Assembly (NCBI GenBank): GCA_016280955.1
Contig: JAEEHV010000038.1
Location: 2,020 to 66,019, forward strand
DNA: 64,000 nt
Origin: Candidatus Gastranaerophilales bacterium
GTDB lineage: Bacteria > Cyanobacteriota > Vampirovibrionia > Gastranaerophilales > Gastranaerophilaceae
Direction of reading: 5' to 3'
Shown: positions 4,365 through 53,867 of the stretch, piece by piece
How positions within the stretch are numbered: position 1 is the stretch's first letter
Layout: each line of letters begins with the position of its first letter
Translations under genes and position numbers: made by a program
The notes under the pieces: generated by a model
What the model saw: the letters and a program-made list of their open reading frames with translations, nothing else
Told to the model about the DNA's origin: nothing
Database searches by the model: none

Positions 4365-5612
4365 TTAAATCTTGCCGGCTTGTTCAACGTATGCGTTGAT
4401 ATCTTCATCAGAATTCATTTCGGTTGCACAAACTAAAATTTGTTTATTATTAAGTTTGATTCCGCCCAATATTCCTGTTTCTTTAAGTCTGCTTAAAAAC
4501 ATATCGGAATCTTTAACTTCAATTACAAATTCATTAAAAAAGTTTTTATTCAGAGTCTTAATACCTTTTTCTTGAAGCATTTGAGAAAGTTTATGAGCAT
4601 TATTTGCAGAAATAATTCCGGTTTCTCTGAATCCCTTTTCTCCGAGCAAGCTCAGATATAAAGTTGCAGAAAGGGCAATAAGAGATTGATTTGAACAAAT
4701 ATTACTTGTAGCTTTTTCTCTCTTTATATGCTGCTCTCTTGTCTGAATAGTAAGAGTAAATGCCTGTTTGCCGTCTGCATCTAAAGTTCTTCCGACCAGT
4801 CTTCCCGGAAGTTGACGCATATAAACTTCTTTGCATGCCATATAACCGGCATGGGGACCGCCAAAATTCATCGGAATTCCCAGCGGTTGTATATCTCCGA
4901 CAACTATATCCGCTTCTGCAGGCGGATTGATTACGGAAAGTGCAGACAGATTTGCACAAACAATAAAAGTTGTATCAGGTTTCTTAAGCTGATAAATTTC
5001 TCCGTAATAGTCAGGATATTGAACTAATACACAGCAAGCATCAGATACGTTGTCCGGGAGTTCATCAAACCACTTTAATTCAATATCTTTAGCCCATGCA
5101 TATGTTTTAATAACTTCTTTGTATTCCGGATTAAGCTTGTTTGATATAAGAGCTTTATTTAACTTGCCTCTGTTAATTCTGTGAGCCATTAAAACGGCTT
5201 CTGCACATGCGGAACCGCCATCATACATAGATGCATTTGCAATATCCATGCCGGTAATACGTGATATCATTGTCTGATATTCATATATGACTTGTAAAGT
5301 TCCCTGAGATATTTCAGGCTGATACGGGGTGTATGCCGTTAAGAATTCAAAACGTTGTGCCGTATAGTTAACAGCAGCCGGTATAAATTTATTATAAACT
5401 CCGCCCCCGAGAAAAGATATATAATCTGTTTTATTTTTCTTTGAGAGTGCTTTTATTCTTTTTTGCGTTTCAAGCTCACTCAGCGGATTATCCATCTTAA
5501 ATTCTTTAAACAATACGGGAATGTGTTTGAATAAATCATCAATTGAAGATTTATTCACCGAGTTCAGCATCTCTTGTCTTATATCATCAGTATGTGCGAT
5601 AAAATTTTTCAT
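4365..5612 (-). CDS. gcvPA: glycine dehydrogenase (decarboxylating) subunit 1
   Basis: FLTAYTPYQPEISQG, ANASMYDG, FGGPHAG, LQTREQHI.REKATSNIC-type motifs; 415 aa, the size of the split P1 subunit. Confidence 0.93.
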   Translation of the reverse strand: MKNFIAHTDDIRQEMLNSVNKSSIDDLFKHIPVLFKEFKMDNPLSELETQKRIKALSKKNKTDYISFLGGGVYNKFIPAAVNYTAQRFEFLTAYTPYQPEISQGTLQVIYEYQTMISRITGMDIANASMYDGGSACAEAVLMAHRINRGKLNKALISNKLNPEYKEVIKTYAWAKDIELKWFDELPDNVSDACCVLVQYPDYYGEIYQLKKPDTTFIVCANLSALSVINPPAEADIVVGDIQPLGIPMNFGGPHAGYMACKEVYMRQLPGRLVGRTLDADGKQAFTLTIQTREQHIKREKATSNICSNQSLIALSATLYLSLLGEKGFRETGIISANNAHKLSQMLQEKGIKTLNKNFFNEFVIEVKDSDMFLSRLKETGILGGIKLNNKQILVCATEMNSDEDINAYVEQAGKI

Positions 5613-47835: not shown

Positions 47836-49068
47836 TTAAAAAGAAATAACCTCATGGAACGAATCGATTGCAAATGTATCACTCATTCCTGAGAGGAAAT
47901 CCAGAACACAGTTTTTATATTCCTGCTCATCATCAAGATGATAAATAAGTTTGTTTTTGCATCTTTTGTTTTCTTTTTCCGCTAAATTATAGTCGGAGTA
48001 TTTAGTAAGCCATCCTTCATAAATAGTGTATAACTTAGGATACAGGATTTTTTCTTTTGCGATAACATCTCTGACGTTATTGCCTGTTAAATTTTCTCCA
48101 AGCTGTTCATAAAGAGTTTCAATAATGAGAGTTGCATATTTTTTAAACTTCGAAATTCTTGGGTGGTTACAGATATTTTTGTAATTGAATTGTTTTACAA
48201 GTTTAAGCACCTGGAAGCAATCCTCAGAGAAACAAAGCCCGTCCTCTATTGAGGAATTAGCACACAGGTTCAGTATCAAAGAGTGTGTGAAAGAGGATGT
48301 GTTTAACTCGTTTATTTTAATATTGGGATAAATGGTATGAACAACATTCAATAATTCTTCTTTTTGCTCTTTTTTCAGAATACCGTATGAAATGGCATCT
48401 TCTATATCACGTCCTATATAACCGATTTTATCGGATATTTTTACAACACACCCTTCGTAAGTATATGCCCCGTTTTTACCTCCTTTTTGGATTGAATACA
48501 GATCACAGGCATCTTCTCTCGGTTTAACATATCTTTCATCAACTTCTCCGCAATGACATACAATACCGTCACGAACTGCATATGTAAGGTTTAAATTTTG
48601 CTGATAACCGCTATAGTCAGTGATAGTTTCAATTTTATCAATAAATCTAAGACTGTTATTTTCATGCCAAAAAGAGTGAAGGTTATTCGCTTCTGCAATA
48701 TCCTGCAAAACAGTTTCACCATGGTGTCCAAACGGTGCATGTCCTATATCGTGCCCGAGTGCAATAGCTCTTGCAAGCTCTTTATTAAGGTTTAGGTACT
48801 TGGCAATTGTTTCAGCAACGGAGGCTACAAGCTGAACATGCTCCATTCTTGTACAAACGTGGTCATTCTGAGGAGCAAAGAATACCTGAGTTTTATGCTT
48901 TAGCCTTCGGTATCCTTTAGAGTGCATAATCCGCATTTCATCACGTTCAAACGGAGTCCGCAAATCGTTCTCTTTTTGATAAAGTTCGGCTTCTCTTGAG
49001 ATTGCCTGTTCCCACTTGGGGTTGTTTTCATCCATTCTGACACATGAAAAATCTGCAAGCTTATTCAT
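47836..49068 (-). CDS. dgt: dGTP triphosphohydrolase-like HD-domain protein
   Basis: RTPFERD..RI.HS..YRRL.HKTQVF, TR..H, GHDIGHAPFGH.GE, SD.I.Y..RDIED, D..SGMSD. Confidence 0.9.
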   Translation of the reverse strand: MNKLADFSCVRMDENNPKWEQAISREAELYQKENDLRTPFERDEMRIMHSKGYRRLKHKTQVFFAPQNDHVCTRMEHVQLVASVAETIAKYLNLNKELARAIALGHDIGHAPFGHHGETVLQDIAEANNLHSFWHENNSLRFIDKIETITDYSGYQQNLNLTYAVRDGIVCHCGEVDERYVKPREDACDLYSIQKGGKNGAYTYEGCVVKISDKIGYIGRDIEDAISYGILKKEQKEELLNVVHTIYPNIKINELNTSSFTHSLILNLCANSSIEDGLCFSEDCFQVLKLVKQFNYKNICNHPRISKFKKYATLIIETLYEQLGENLTGNNVRDVIAKEKILYPKLYTIYEGWLTKYSDYNLAEKENKRCKNKLIYHLDDEQEYKNCVLDFLSGMSDTFAIDSFHEVISF

Positions 49069-49136
49069 ACTTTATCCGCTCCTGTATCTCTTTACCACTA
49101 TGACCGTTAAAATTATTTTGTTATCGTTTCATTTTA

Positions 49137-51134
49137 TCAGAATCCTATACTGTTTTTCAACTCTTTGGATTTTTTTACTTTTACTTCTTCTCTTAGCATT
49201 GTTACAATTTCGTCCAAATCAATAATATCCAGAAAATCAGTTTTCTTTTTAACGGTTGCAAAATCTCCCGCAGTCAACCCTTTAATATCGATATTTTTAT
49301 CTTTAACTTTTATTCCGAAAAAGTGTTCAATTGCACAATTTACCTGTTCATTGTTCATAAAGTCGAAGCGGATTTTAAATGTAAAGCGTCTCAGAGATGC
49401 TTCGTCCAATGTATCAAGCAGGTTTGTAGTACATACAAACGGATATTCATGCGATTCCATCCAAGTAAGCATTTCATTAACTTGTGTAATTTCCCAGGAA
49501 TGTGATGCATTATTTCTGTTTTGTAAAAAGCTGTCTGCTTCATCAAAAATCAGCATCGCTTTTTTAGATTTTGCTTCCGCAAAAGCAGCGGCAATGTTCT
49601 GCTCTGATTCGCCAACCCATTTGCTCATCAAATCACTTGCCCTTTTATAAATAACTTCAACACCGAGCTGTTTTGCAAGATACCTTGCATATTGAGATTT
49701 TCCTGTTCCCGGCTCACCATACAGGCAAAGTGAAAAATTGAGCTTTCCGCAAGATTTTATTTTTTGTGTAAGATTTTTTATGTCAACGTCAGTATTAACA
49801 AGACTTTCATCGTATTCTTTTAATTCAAATTCTTTTTTGTTTTTTACGTTTTTCTTTTTCGTCACAACCTTGGCAACATTCTCAATTAGACCTTCAAAGT
49901 CATTTTCATCACCGCCAATCATTTTTGTTGTCTGAACGGCATTAGAAATAAGTGATGGAGGAATATCATAGTTTTTATTTAATTCCGTTAATTTTTCTTT
50001 GCTGACCTTTAGTTTATTCTTTTTAATAACTCTGTTCCAGATATTGAGCCTTGTTTCTTCAGACAGTTTTTCAAATTCAATACAATAAGTCATTCTTCTG
50101 AGGAAAGCCGGATCCACATCGTATATGTTATTTGTAGTCCAGATTATTGGAACGGACGTTGTTTCCAGAAGGGTATTAAGATAGCCTTTTGATGCCGAAC
50201 CTCCGTAACCGAACCCTCTGTTCATAACATCTTCGCCTTCATCAAAAAGAATACAGGCACCTTCGGTTCTGGAAAGTAAATGCTGCTTTGCATTCAAATC
50301 CACAAGTCGATCTTCTCTGTCGGCTTCTTTATAATTCATATTTCCCAATTCTGTTATAACGGAATACATAGGAATGTTTGCTTTATTTGCAATCAGTTTT
50401 GAGTATTCGGTTTTTCCTGTTCCGACACCGCCATACAGAAGAATATTAACTCCTTTTTTCTTTTGCATAACTGCCTGAGATAAAATATTTATAACCTTTT
50501 GAGTATCTTTGATATGAGAAAAATCCTCAAGTTTTAATGTTGCTTTTTGTTTTTTTCCTATAAGAATGCTGATTATTTTATCTGCAGAATCACATTGCGG
50601 ATTATCCAGAATTTCCAGAAAAATATCGTTTATACAATCACTGCGTCTGCTTTCGGTAATATTTTTCCGGTGCAGACCGTCTAAAAGACGTTCCTTCTTG
50701 CCGCATCTGAGTCCCAGATAGACTCTTGAAAAAGTGGACAGAGATTGATTTTCCAAACATTCAAAATACTTGTCAAAAATATTATTGATTTCTTTGAATG
50801 CCATATATAGTAATATTTCATACTCCATATTATTTAGTGTAAAAATCTCTTTGATAGTTAATAATTGCTGCTCAAGCTTAGTGTTTCTCGGCTGAATTTT
50901 TTCTTTAAGTTTTTTTACAACTTTTTTCATCTGTTTAGCAAAAACTTCCCTTGCTTTTGTTGACTCAAGTTCAAGGTTTCCGTCTTTATCAATACAATCA
51001 AACTGTTTCGGGTTAATCTTAAATTCGTTCAGCATAAAATCAAATACGGCATCAAACGAATAACTGTTAGTATCAGTTACCGGCATAAGTTTTTCCACAT
51101 AATCTAAAAATTTTCTTTTTTCAAAATTGTTCAT
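49137..51134 (-). CDS. tandem (two-domain) AAA+ ATPase with N-terminal helical domain
   Basis: Walker A GGVGTGKT and GEPGTGKS; Walker B ILFDE and LIFDE; AAGGAG RBS before ATG 51134. Confidence 0.9.
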   Translation of the reverse strand: MNNFEKRKFLDYVEKLMPVTDTNSYSFDAVFDFMLNEFKINPKQFDCIDKDGNLELESTKAREVFAKQMKKVVKKLKEKIQPRNTKLEQQLLTIKEIFTLNNMEYEILLYMAFKEINNIFDKYFECLENQSLSTFSRVYLGLRCGKKERLLDGLHRKNITESRRSDCINDIFLEILDNPQCDSADKIISILIGKKQKATLKLEDFSHIKDTQKVINILSQAVMQKKKGVNILLYGGVGTGKTEYSKLIANKANIPMYSVITELGNMNYKEADREDRLVDLNAKQHLLSRTEGACILFDEGEDVMNRGFGYGGSASKGYLNTLLETTSVPIIWTTNNIYDVDPAFLRRMTYCIEFEKLSEETRLNIWNRVIKKNKLKVSKEKLTELNKNYDIPPSLISNAVQTTKMIGGDENDFEGLIENVAKVVTKKKNVKNKKEFELKEYDESLVNTDVDIKNLTQKIKSCGKLNFSLCLYGEPGTGKSQYARYLAKQLGVEVIYKRASDLMSKWVGESEQNIAAAFAEAKSKKAMLIFDEADSFLQNRNNASHSWEITQVNEMLTWMESHEYPFVCTTNLLDTLDEASLRRFTFKIRFDFMNNEQVNCAIEHFFGIKVKDKNIDIKGLTAGDFATVKKKTDFLDIIDLDEIVTMLREEVKVKKSKELKNSIGF

Positions 51135-51202
51135 GGTTTTGCTCCTTGTTAAACGGGATATCACATTCCCTTTTGCTATTCATTTTCGTTTCTTACATAT
51201 AC

Positions 51203-51234
51203 ATAATATCAGACAAATGCGACAGAAATGGACG
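51203..51234 (-). promoter_or_regulatory. WYL-activator-like (-26 element) promoter of the AAA gene
   Basis: CGTCCATTTC-TGTCGC-N10-TATTAT on the minus strand. Confidence 0.55.
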
Positions 51235-51262
51235 GAGGAAGAAAAACTTTTTTCTTCCTCCG
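51233..51262. terminator. 14-bp perfect inverted repeat between the DUF2130 and AAA genes
   Basis: cggaggaagaaaaa-ct-tttttcttcctccg. Confidence 0.6.
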
Positions 51263-51299
51263 GTAAAATAAAAAAGAAATGTTCTCTGTTGATTCCAAT

Positions 51300-52610
51300 T
51301 TATTTTTTCTTTTTTTTGTCCGTTATTTTTAAGGCATCAAATTTTGCTTTCATTGTCGGATTATTTCTTGTAAGCTTTTTAATACTAAGGTCTTCTACCT
51401 TATTGTTAGCGGAGCTGAGGTGCTTTTCGGATAAAAGCAGTGCATCTTTTATACTCTGCAGATTTTTGATGGCTTTATCAATACCAGATATAGCATCATT
51501 AAACCTCAAGCCTGCATCTTTCACGTTTTTAACAAATTTATCCTTAAAATCGTTTAATTCGGCTTCGAAATTGGACACATCAATGTTTTGCATTTTTATC
51601 CGCTCAAGTTCTTTTCTGTATTCAAGCGAATGTCTTGCTGCATCTCTGAGCAGGGTAATTATCGGAATAAAGAACTGAGGTCTTATTACATACATTTTTT
51701 CATATTTATAAGAAACATCAACAATTCCGCTGTTATATAAATCACTTTCCGGCTCAAGAAGTGATACTAAAACTGCATATTCACATTTCTTTTCTTTGCG
51801 GTCTTTATCGAGTTCTTTAAAGAAATCTTCGTTCTTTTTCTTAGTCGATGTTGTGTCTGCTTCGTTTTTCATCTCAAACATAATCGATATATATTCATTT
51901 TTATCTTCATCGTATGCTCTGAAAATATAGTCGCCTTTACTGCCGGATTTTACATCATTGTCTTTTTCAAAATACGAACCTGAAAAAGCAGTAGAACGGA
52001 ATCTGTTGAACTCTGTTTCGCAGTGTTGTTCAAGAGTTTCACCAATCATTTTAGTTGATAATTTTGCTTTAAAATCTTTGTATTGTTCGATTGTTTCATC
52101 TTTGAGCTTAAGCTGAATTTCATATCTTTCTTTGAGTGATTGTTCTCTGAGCAGACATTCTTTTTCTGTTAATGCCTGTTCGCTTTTAAGTTTTTCAATG
52201 CTGTTTTCTTTTTTCGCTATTTCTTCGGTTAGTTTTGACTCAAGTTTTTTTAATTCAAGCAGCTTATCTTTCTCAAAAGATGAAAGCTGATTCCTGAGTT
52301 CGGCAATTTCTTTATCTTTTTCGGCAGCAGTTTCTTTAACGGCAGATTTTTTAATAAGGTCGCTTTCTTTAATTTTAGCTTCCAGTTTTGCAATTTCAGC
52401 ATCTTTTTTCGTTAATTCAATATTGAAGCCTTTTTCTGCTTCCAGTTTTGCAACCTGAATTGCCTGATTTTTTTCTGATTCAAATTGCTGCTCACGGCTT
52501 TGAAGCTCTTTAGAGAATTCTTTATCTCTTACCTGTTTAAGTATTGCAGCATATCCTGCTTCATCGATTTGAAATTTTTCACCGCATTTTGGGCATTGAA
52601 GATTGTTCAT
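51300..52610 (-). CDS. DUF2130-like coiled-coil protein with a putative PD-(D/E)xK nuclease domain
   Basis: N-terminal CPKCG..F.IDE, long coiled coil, KGD.....IMFEMKNE and YEKMYVIRPQFFIP; start at ATG 52610 with GAGGT RBS. Confidence 0.8.
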   Translation of the reverse strand: MNNLQCPKCGEKFQIDEAGYAAILKQVRDKEFSKELQSREQQFESEKNQAIQVAKLEAEKGFNIELTKKDAEIAKLEAKIKESDLIKKSAVKETAAEKDKEIAELRNQLSSFEKDKLLELKKLESKLTEEIAKKENSIEKLKSEQALTEKECLLREQSLKERYEIQLKLKDETIEQYKDFKAKLSTKMIGETLEQHCETEFNRFRSTAFSGSYFEKDNDVKSGSKGDYIFRAYDEDKNEYISIMFEMKNEADTTSTKKKNEDFFKELDKDRKEKKCEYAVLVSLLEPESDLYNSGIVDVSYKYEKMYVIRPQFFIPIITLLRDAARHSLEYRKELERIKMQNIDVSNFEAELNDFKDKFVKNVKDAGLRFNDAISGIDKAIKNLQSIKDALLLSEKHLSSANNKVEDLSIKKLTRNNPTMKAKFDALKITDKKKKK

Positions 52611-52662
52611 GGTTATTACCTCTTTTTTGTTTAATTTAGTATCATTAGTTTTTGGTTGTTTT

Positions 52663-53109
52663 TTAGTTGTTTTTGTTGTGTACATAAGTACCTCCTTTTA
52701 TTTTAGTACAGTTGGAAAATTTTGGACTTGGTTCGAGTTCGTTAATGTTATCCATTACGAACCGGTAAATCTGCCTGAAGTATTCTATGTTATCGTTTGT
52801 AACAAATTGTTCGTGACAGTTTGTACAGTAGAATTGGATTGTATGTGCGCCGGAAAGAACCGAACCCCCGCACATATAGGGGATTAAAGTATTAATTTTG
52901 CAGTTTGGACAGATTTCTTTTTGAAACAATCCGCTTTTCAGCCGGTATGAACCGAGCCAGATAAGAGCCGCATCAAGCGGCATTTGGTCATTAAGTTCGG
53001 AGCTGTTTATATGAGAAAAAATCTCAGGATAAATTTCTCCGGCATAATGAGTTTTTGTTTTTGACGGAAGCTGCTTTTCAACTTCACTTTTTGATTTGAA
53101 TTTTGTCAT
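52663..53109 (-). CDS. hypothetical protein with a C4 zinc-ribbon
   Basis: CPNC and CTNC pairs; GAGGT RBS; first gene after the SAM riboswitch terminator. Confidence 0.75.
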   Translation of the reverse strand: MTKFKSKSEVEKQLPSKTKTHYAGEIYPEIFSHINSSELNDQMPLDAALIWLGSYRLKSGLFQKEICPNCKINTLIPYMCGGSVLSGAHTIQFYCTNCHEQFVTNDNIEYFRQIYRFVMDNINELEPSPKFSNCTKIKGGTYVHNKNN

Positions 53110-53210
53110 TTTTCGTTACCTCATATTTAATATTTCTTATCAGGTTTCCCTGATTTTATACGTTTGATAACTCATAGAGGCACGAATGGTTAACACATAT
53201 CTTTTTTAAG

Positions 53211-53249
53211 GAAAAGAAAAAGGCTCATCGCAATGACAAGCCTTTTCTT
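53211..53249 (-). terminator. riboswitch-associated intrinsic terminator
   Basis: Minus strand aagaaaaggctt-gtcat-tgcg-atga-gcctttttctttt. Confidence 0.8.
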
Positions 53250-53284
53250 GCAAGCAAAGTTAGTTACACAAAGCAGAAAGGAGG

Positions 53285-53381
53285 TCTCATCATTCAAGCA
53301 TTAGCACCTTCAGAATAAAATATATTTATTCCGGGTTGCTGTGTAGTCATCGGGCTTGTCCCTCGTACACTCTCTATGAGA
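53285..53381 (-). ncRNA. SAM-I (S-box) riboswitch aptamer, P4-less variant
   Basis: P1 tctcat/atgaga; AGAG; P2 gtgta/tacac with kink-turn and GAGGGAC..GCCCGATGA; AGCAACC...AAGGTGCTAA (P3); loop CAAG can pair with CTTG (pseudoknot). Confidence 0.88.
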
Positions 53382-53416
53382 TTGGTTATTCAATTTTCAA
53401 TGTATTTGTTATTGTT

Positions 53417-53488
53417 TTAATCATCAAAGAAATCTTCGAGTTCATCCCAATAACAGAATAAAAGTAGTCCTATTAGCCAGAGAGGCAT
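53417..53488 (-). CDS. unannotated 23-aa small protein MPLWLIGLLLFCYWDELEDFFDD
   Basis: AAGAGGTGG Shine-Dalgarno 5 nt before ATG; candidate promoter directly upstream. Confidence 0.55.
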   Translation of the reverse strand: MPLWLIGLLLFCYWDELEDFFDD

Positions 53489-53527
53489 TTTTACCACCTC
53501 TTTTTGTTTATTTTCTCTGATATTTTT

Positions 53528-53559
53528 ATTGTAAAATACTGCTGTGTCAAAAATGGACG
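53528..53559 (-). promoter_or_regulatory. WYL-activator-like (-26 element) promoter
   Basis: CGTCCATTTT-TGACAC-N10-TACAAT on the minus strand. Confidence 0.55.
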
Positions 53560-53576
53560 TATGTATTTTATTATTT

Positions 53577-53867
53577 TTAAATTACTTTCAGCATCGGATG
53601 TTTTTTTATAAAACGAAGCTTGCTGAATGCTTGTGCTTCAATCTGTCGGACTCTTTCTCTTGTAATTCCGAAAATATTTCCGACTTCATTAAGAGTTTTC
53701 GGAATATTGTCAGCCAAACCGTAACGTAATGCTATTACATCCTGTTCTTTTAATTTAAGCTGCTGAAAGTCAGATACTTTAAAAGTTATTTCAAATTTTT
53801 TGTTGTTAGAATCTTTTGTAATAACTATTTCGTCTTTGTTTCTTGTAACATTAATTTCCTGTTTCAT
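53577..53867 (-). CDS. standalone sigma70 region-4 HTH protein
   Basis: VIALRYGL....[29 protein letters not shown]; no region 2 or 3. Confidence 0.85.

Follow-up and report, generated by a model that had tools for sequence, protein, structure and literature searches.

A SAM-I riboswitch-linked Zn-ribbon family in a mosaic, probably co-regulated accessory island of a Gastranaerophilales bacterium

The block described here, six genes on the minus strand, lies in a 64-kb stretch of DNA (the window; contig JAEEHV010000038.1, positions 2,020 to 66,019) from a Candidatus Gastranaerophilales bacterium. The Gastranaerophilales are non-photosynthetic relatives of cyanobacteria found in the gut. The genome (2.78 Mb, 93 contigs) was compared with 60 relatives, making 61 Gastranaerophilales genomes together, which are given G numbers below, with C for contigs and L for homologous loci; counts within the genus refer to 37 genomes, and a survey of short sigma homologues to 41. 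Open reading frames (ORFs) were listed over 44-58 kb of the window, proteins were scanned against Pfam, NCBIfam, PADLOC and PHROG, and Rfam covariance models were run over its whole length. A sequence-only reading of the block had described a sigma region-4 protein, a 23-aa peptide, a Zn-ribbon protein, a coiled-coil protein, a two-ring AAA+ ATPase and a dGTPase, all co-oriented, and the ORF listing and domain scans recovered all six in place and with those domains. To these we add an S-adenosylmethionine (SAM) riboswitch of class SAM-I with its terminator, a hairpin and a separate promoter before the AAA+ gene, and likely later starts for two of the proteins.

Read in the direction of transcription, the block opens with promoter P1 (53939..53969, minus strand like all features here; GACCGTTTTTGAC, 12 nt, TATTAT), one of three promoters of a -26-element type, which lies upstream of a gene for a 96-aa stand-alone sigma-70 region-4 protein, sigma-R4 (53577..53867; Pfam Sigma70_r4, E 3.8e-15). 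Promoter P2 (53528..53558; GTCCATTTTTGAC, 12 nt, TACAAT), which we read as driving the riboswitch leader, is followed by a 23-aa ORF (53417..53488; MPLWLIGLLLFCYWDELEDFFDD) with a hydrophobic N-terminus and an acidic tail; it is probably real because it has a strong ribosome-binding site (aaagaggtgg) and is kept in three other loci, as MPLWFIGLLLFCYWDELEDIYDD (L031), MPLWFIGLLLLCYWDDLEDIYDDE (L048) and a variant in L051. Next come the riboswitch aptamer (53284..53382), an intrinsic terminator belonging to its expression platform (53217..53247; a 13-bp stem then a T-run, -15.9 kcal/mol) and a gene for a 148-aa Zn-ribbon protein of an undescribed family, here called ZnR148 (52663..53109). The gene for a DUF2130 protein (51300..52685; PF09903, E 1.2e-86, 290.6 bits against a gathering score of 26.7) likely starts at M26 (52610), judging from homologue alignments, and is followed by a strong hairpin (about 51233..51262; GGAGGAAGAAAAA/TTTTTCTTCCTCC, about -16 kcal/mol). 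Promoter P3 (51203..51233; GTCCATTTCTGTC, 12 nt, TATTAT) stands upstream of the gene for a 675-aa two-module AAA+ ATPase, AAA2 (49137..51164; PF00004 twice), for which the same kind of alignment favors M11 (51134) as the true start, and the block closes 68 nt downstream with a 410-aa HD protein, dGTPase-410 (47836..49068; TIGR01353, Pfam HD and HD_assoc). Just 5' of the 23-aa ORF, three of the homologous loci carry a conserved 51-aa ORF (MSMYPFYCEYRTKGGQRCGETIFARDSLEAREIIKMRPDFDYLF...; L031:6268-6432, L048 at about 5390-5545 and L051:5559-5714) that the window does not have.

The sequence-only reading proposed that these genes act as one set, and their inheritance speaks against it. In a tblastn comparison of all block and flank proteins with 20-kb regions around each homologue, carried out over the 61 genomes, the block genes are adjacent only here. 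The four larger genes are patchy, with ZnR148 present in 3/37 genus genomes, dGTPase-410 in 5/37, AAA2 in about 6/37 and DUF2130 in 13/37, but each is patchy separately and they are not inherited jointly. The regions around AAA2 homologues (G008, G059, G029, G032, G049) hold no other block gene within about 10 kb, and none was found near the dGTPase-410 homologues. Only the riboswitch-ZnR148 part recurs, with or without DUF2130 and in G026 also with sigma-R4, and in G008 this cassette, DUF2130 included, lies about 15 kb from the AAA2 gene on the same contig. The block is not one co-inherited system but a mosaic of three independently inherited accessory units. We regard it as quite improbable that the six genes form a single undescribed anti-phage system, with an AAA+/DUF2130 complex and a dGTPase depleting deoxynucleotide triphosphates (dNTPs). 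Co-orientation, tight packing, accessory status throughout and a common promoter type would all fit such a system, as would the habit of the AAA2 family of lying by PD-(D/E)XK nucleases and the match of dGTPase-410 to the PADLOC dGTPase model (E 1e-53), but this is the only examined genome in which the genes meet, and a hairpin and a promoter of its own separate AAA2 from DUF2130. Moreover, the nucleases beside AAA2 elsewhere are UvrD-PDDEXK, RecB-like and DUF2779 proteins and never DUF2130, the scores for the anti-phage dGTPase and for IteA fall far under their cut-offs, and PADLOC matched no multi-gene system. In the case of the MZA system, the MzaA model was matched by sigma-R4 over its last 60 residues (region 4) only, at 66.7 bits against a cut-off of 800.

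The most informative element of the block is the riboswitch, which is the sole Rfam match in the window (RF00162, 63.1 bits with the gathering score at 44.4, E 2.7e-12); no other SAM riboswitch occurs in the 2.78 Mb of the genome. Helices P1, P2 and P3 of the aptamer are conserved, with three compensatory pairs across 11 aligned loci, while the P4 helix is deleted in the window alignment (model positions about 83-97) and no conserved P4 was seen in the 11 loci. Pairing of the 3' strand of helix P1 with the 5' arm of the terminator, that is, an antiterminator, is predicted at -18.3 kcal/mol compared with -15.9 kcal/mol for the terminator hairpin, and terminators are visible in other ZnR148 loci as well. 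This layout is the classical S-box arrangement and points to a switch that is OFF at high SAM. The element thus resembles the SAM-I riboswitches that precede metK or metE in Firmicutes and metK in other Gastranaerophilales, sharing a score above gathering, helices P1 to P3 and a terminator/antiterminator platform; it differs in having no P4 and in its target, which is a Zn-ribbon protein, sometimes with a nuclease-like protein, instead of a methionine or SAM gene. Very probably it controls both ZnR148 and DUF2130. When the leader was compared with a phage collection, a single 45-nt match was returned, to a faecal scaffold marked UNVERIFIED whose flanking genes (trpB, gdh and an aldo-keto reductase) look bacterial.

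Linkage between this riboswitch and ZnR148 is universal among close homologues. Over the ZnR148-family loci that could be retrieved, a riboswitch at or above the gathering score lies 55-190 nt upstream of 11/11 distinct Gastranaerophilales variants (13 contigs), and each of the 14 homologues tested, close or fused, has one upstream (16 contigs, two phyla), the other family loci scanned scoring 48-68 bits with RF00162. Within the genus, a SAM riboswitch occurs in exactly the three genomes that bear ZnR148 and in none of the 34 others. SAM riboswitches are textbook regulators of methionine, cysteine and SAM genes, and a literature search found no paper tying them to DnaA-like or Zn-ribbon genes, or to the sensing of phage SAM lyases. 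One may ask whether ZnR148, alone or with DUF2130, simply belongs to the methionine/SAM regulon, for instance acting in sulfur or methyl metabolism as a small enzyme, a carrier or a regulator. The classical targets of this riboswitch class would lead one to expect this, as would its position before metK in 8/10 cases in sister families of the order, and a Zn site with Cys ligands is typical of homocysteine methyltransferases. We nevertheless think it very unlikely, given that ZnR148 is accessory and travels with its own riboswitch, has no metabolic genes among its neighbors, matches no enzyme family or fold, and has remote homologues fused to a DnaA/Hda-like domain. The metK gene of the window genome itself (contig C15) has no SAM riboswitch.

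Some SAM riboswitches in these relatives stand before other genes. In the Elusimicrobia locus L073 (5960-8856, minus strand), a second SAM riboswitch faces a DnaA-like ZnR fusion and heads an operon that encodes four small unknown proteins and ends with a gene of the FGase (N-formylglutamate amidohydrolase) family. In G059 (L060, G059:C10:43400-48100), the riboswitch is directly 5' of a 264-aa gene that is FGase-like by eye, with a 186-aa gene of Sir2-like appearance after it. At L057 (G054:C49:12700-15230) it precedes an unrelated and unknown 148-aa protein, then one of 427 aa containing CxxC pairs, a further S-box target in the order without an obvious methionine or SAM role.

ZnR148 itself matches nothing in Pfam, NCBIfam, PADLOC or PHROG, and its 39 homologues at 50% identity or more are all unnamed metagenomic proteins; four cysteines, C67, C70, C95 and C98, are invariant in 25 homologues. 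Elsewhere in the genus of the window genome it is present only in G008 and G026. It is often monocistronic, with DUF2130 next in 5/11 Gastranaerophilales loci and in the more distant GCA_016648615.1; DUF2130 is an optional downstream passenger of ZnR148. Its further neighbors are WYL regulators, Mu-like transposition genes, DNA methyltransferases and FtsK. Short stand-alone homologues of sigma-R4 were found, among the 41 genus genomes surveyed, in G000 and G026 only, in both upstream of the ZnR148 cassette. The structure predicted by AlphaFold2 (AF2) for ZnR148 has a mean confidence (pLDDT) of 87.5. Two resemblances were set aside as generic Zn-ribbon similarity, namely that of the model to RPA12/Rpb9 and a marginal one to the N-terminal Zn domain of MqsA (PDB sequence profile search, E 1.4e-3). 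In one relative (L043:8525-12685), the cassette abuts Mu-like transposition genes, comprising a MuA-like DDE transposase, a MuB-like AAA_22 protein and GemA.

An exhaustive profile search revealed longer proteins with a C-terminal ZnR148 domain, and this fusion is the only functional clue for the family. The N-terminal domain of the fusions matches Pfam Bac_DnaA (24.4 bits against 23), and NCBI labels one of them, from Candidatus Avelusimicrobium, a DnaA ATPase domain-containing protein. The AF2 model of a fusion (pLDDT 81) has its best Foldseek matches in domain III of DnaA (8btg, 8bv3, 2z4r) and in Hda (3sc3), at E 4e-7 to 4e-4. The likeness to Hda and DnaA domain III is one of structure; Walker A is degenerate in most of the fusions, and the ZnR148 of the window lacks this domain. 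A SAM riboswitch lies immediately 5' of 3/3 DnaA-like fusion loci retrieved, all in Elusimicrobia. The fusion points to replication-initiator-type AAA+ machinery, from which the likeliest field of action of the riboswitch-controlled unit would be replication initiation or DNA integrity at low SAM. We hold a role in replication or DNA integrity, or in the sensing of phage SAM lyases, to be possible but on balance doubtful. ZnR148 may represent a new protein family that is induced when SAM is low and that could be linked to replication.

Comparison of the intergenic regions shows that P1, P2 and P3 all consist of GTCC[AG]TTTYTG[AT]C, then exactly 12 nt, then TAnnnT. Searched genome-wide with up to one mismatch in the first element, this motif has 8 sites in 2.78 Mb, where Markov simulations gave 0-2, and three of the eight fall in a 2.8-kb stretch of the block. 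The geometry is identical to that of the PafBC motif, tGTCgg(N10)tA(N3)T, whose -26 element takes the place of the -35 (PMC8635444); all three promoters fit this layout, with no -35 at 17-bp spacing, although P2 also allows a canonical reading. Of the other five sites, two stand before ftsI paralogues, one before the gene of a P-loop ATPase located near a WYL regulator, one before a small hydrophobic ORF and the last before an unknown gene. Among relatives, accessory loci often carry the motif; it is found 5' of the gene for a WYL regulator at L033:2304 and upstream of the leader in 7/11 ZnR148 loci. Two regulators of the winged helix-turn-helix (wHTH)-WYL-WCX type are encoded in the genome (C6:47716-48687 and C58:8117-9070). 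The block promoters therefore resemble the targets of the sigma-adaptation activators PafBC, DriD and SiwR (PMC8635444, PMC10693628, PMC9186387) in having a GTC/GAC half-site 12 nt 5' of a TAnnnT -10, and the likeness extends to the presence of wHTH-WYL-WCX regulators both in the genome and beside homologous loci. The differences are a palindromic element (GTC-N7-GAC), another phylum, a regulator outside the window and a regulon that includes ftsI paralogues.

Three of eight such promoters in one block suggest co-regulation, and their shared geometry makes it probable that the island is switched on jointly by a trans-encoded WYL regulator. WYL activators sense single-stranded DNA (ssDNA) or DNA damage in the cases that have been characterized. 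The concentration of promoters also bears on chance juxtaposition, that is, on whether unrelated accessory genes have gathered in a permissive spot, with the riboswitch cassette, AAA2 and dGTPase-410 unlinked. We judge this unlikely. Each gene does have its own distribution and context, the flanking genes are ordinary (an Opp transporter, panE, a cytidylyltransferase, MIF and MFS), and an integrase and a tRNA gene, looked for in the window as hallmarks of mobile elements, are both absent. Chance would not, however, readily place three of the eight promoters within 2.8 kb, nor does it explain why G008 has AAA2 and the ZnR148-DUF2130 cassette on a single contig, or why an AAA2 homologue with 55% identity (L078) lies directly 5' of a DnaB_C protein whose C-terminus is weakly ZnR-like.

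The same promoter type was noted at several further places. It drives the ftsI (penicillin-binding protein)-ftsW operon and a paralogue (C28:6416 and C90:32241 of the window genome; L031:9439, L042:5426 and L048:7030). At C23:46224 (plus strand) there is a near-copy of P2, including the downstream AATAAAAAT..TCAGAGAAAAT stretch, before a small hydrophobic ORF (MTAIIMCLILIFMVN...). At C6:41080-41700 it precedes a gene with the N-terminal P-loop GENGSGKSN, OLD/ABC-ATPase-like by eye, and the WYL regulator at C6:47716-48687 lies about 6 kb away.

Overall, the explanation we favor, with a probability of roughly 0.6, is a mosaic accessory island of three transcription units wired to one stress-type promoter class, in which the middle unit is gated by SAM; the island would probably be co-regulated and stress- or defence-related. 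Unit 1 would be the stand-alone sigma-R4 protein. Unit 2 would comprise its promoter, the 23-aa ORF, the P4-less riboswitch with its terminator, ZnR148, DUF2130 and the hairpin, and unit 3 a promoter and AAA2, followed, probably by read-through, by the second dGTPase of the genome. A trans-encoded WYL regulator would probably activate the whole island, with low SAM as a second condition for unit 2. At high SAM the aptamer would close helix P1 and the terminator would form, whereas at low SAM the 3' strand of helix P1 would pair with the 5' arm of the terminator and both ZnR148 and the nuclease-like DUF2130 protein would be made. A shortage of SAM, and hence of DNA methylation, might arise through starvation or through a SAM-degrading enzyme of a phage. 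More speculatively, the ZnR148 family could form a low-SAM checkpoint on DNA, an AND gate of a WYL-type promoter that senses ssDNA or damage and a SAM riboswitch, which restrains replication initiation or directs a nuclease once DNA methylation fails. The purpose of such a checkpoint would be self-protection from the cell's own restriction enzymes in SAM starvation, or a guard against phage SAM-degrading enzymes. All biochemical functions given here to the block proteins are predicted ones.

Several observations weigh against this explanation of a SAM-gated, jointly regulated island. SAM binding by an aptamer that lacks P4 is itself a prediction from sequence, as is the dependence of the promoters on a WYL regulator, and the window contains no WYL gene. 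P2 also admits an ordinary -35/-10 reading (TTGACA-17-AAAAAT), the motif itself containing TTGACA, and the ftsI paralogues among the promoter targets mean that the regulon is not purely defence-related. For ZnR148, a Foldseek search of the model against PDB and BFVD gave nothing at E<=0.001. Two remote ZnR-like proteins (L078 and L079) have no riboswitch; these relatives are the DnaB_C helicase with the weak ZnR-like tail, and a 202-aa protein located by FtsK and two DNA methyltransferases. AAA2 was considered as kin of the DnaA-like fusion domain, and hhalign gave no specific relationship. Finally, dGTPase-410 is found elsewhere beside purA, a sugar transferase, MetAP or a heptosyltransferase, and with such housekeeping neighbors it may belong to the island by chance.

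If the SAM-gated island is nonetheless real, its implications reach beyond the block. The sole SAM riboswitch of this genome would govern a non-metabolic protein family, as in every close homologue tested in two phyla, so that methyl-donor supply would be tied directly to DNA replication or integrity, or to phage sensing, in a cassette small enough to be testable. PafBC-type sigma-adaptation promoters may work not only in Actinobacteria but also in uncultured cyanobacterial relatives from the gut. Additionally, a widespread, uncharacterized two-ring AAA+ family emerges as one that repeatedly accompanies WYL regulators and nucleases, both on plasmids and in defence islands.

That family is represented in the block by AAA2, which has a 200-aa N-terminal domain, a first module like those of RFC and other clamp loaders, and a classic second AAA module. 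Both Walker A/B pairs are intact, as the sequence-only reading held (GVGTGKT/ILFDEGE and GEPGTGKS/LIFDEAD). The protein is a full-length match to phrog_10401 (E 9e-82), and full-length copies occur in five other genomes (G008, G059, G029, G032 and G049), along with two fragments. On plasmids of Alpha-, Beta- and Gammaproteobacteria and Desulfobacteria, a homologue lies within 5 kb of a WYL-domain protein in 7/7 cases examined, and annotated PD-(D/E)XK or RecB-like nucleases or a UvrD helicase are present in the region on five of the seven. The gene order in G008 is WYL, McrB, McrC, UvrD-PDDEXK, AAA2, FtsZ-like, and the homologue at L078 is flanked by a tubulin-like gene and an integrase. The AAA2 family is associated with nucleases and defence islands, and in this respect the pairing suggested by the sequence-only reading holds, but with other nucleases and not with DUF2130 as the partner. 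Among known proteins, AAA2 stands closest to the IetA/IteA ATPase of the IetAS system and to TRIP13-like AAA+ proteins, its second module resembling IetA (PADLOC, E 3e-33). The likeness is confined to that one module (residues 431-623), with 105 bits against 510 for NCBIfam IteA; AAA2 has the RFC-like module and the N-terminal domain in addition, and no IetS protease gene is adjacent. FtsZ- or tubulin-like genes also occur by AAA2 homologues (L018:8039-8971 and L078:1093-1596, Pfam Tubulin), and a 291-aa gene that is FtsZ-like by eye lies near the ZnR148 cassette at L048:3881-4756; such neighbors hint at partition modules of mobile elements.

Concerning dGTPase-410, the sequence-only reading had left room for the housekeeping enzyme at the edge of the block. 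This role belongs to a gene of 354 aa on contig C59, of a kind that nearly every relative has, which makes the block copy an accessory paralogue. Four other members of the genus carry the 410-aa form at 84-88% identity, and so do three distant genomes at about 45%. As an extra, patchy HD-domain dGTP triphosphohydrolase it resembles the anti-phage dGTPases that deplete dNTPs; its best matches are to ordinary dGTPase models, which also stay under their cut-offs apart from the general subfamily TIGR01353 (164 bits against 152). It falls below the cut-off of the anti-phage model, with 123 bits for NCBIfam antiphage_dGTPase (NF041026) against 400. Its contexts elsewhere give no support for a defence setting. 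Its co-transcription with AAA2 is a prediction.

The DUF2130 protein consists of an N-terminal CPKCG Zn-ribbon, a coiled coil and a C-terminal PD-(D/E)XK-like domain, and the family has been filed in the PD-(D/E)XK superfamily (PMC3424549). The nuclease-like D...ExK motif picked out by the sequence-only reading, KGD...F(E)MK, stands up to comparison, with D252, M272 and K273 invariant in 12 homologues. DUF2130 is encoded in 15/61 genomes, where it is usually monocistronic and stand-alone. In having a long coiled coil ahead of a nuclease-like D...E-x-K core, the protein recalls RmuC-type coiled-coil PD-(D/E)XK proteins, from which it differs in giving no RmuC match in Pfam and in its N-terminal Zn-ribbon. 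The hairpin 3' of the gene likely marks the end of the riboswitch-controlled unit; its role as a terminator is a conditional assignment because its U-tract is weak. In four relatives, the ZnR148-DUF2130 cassette is immediately upstream of ftsI-ftsW. By ZnR148, DUF2130 or ftsI there is also a small protein with a hydrophobic, signal-peptide-like N-terminus and about six tandem YGYNAHG(D/E)YVPTS repeats, encoded at L031:8934-9353, L033:4271-4690, L042:4848-5276, L048:6524-6997 and L052:4258-4686.

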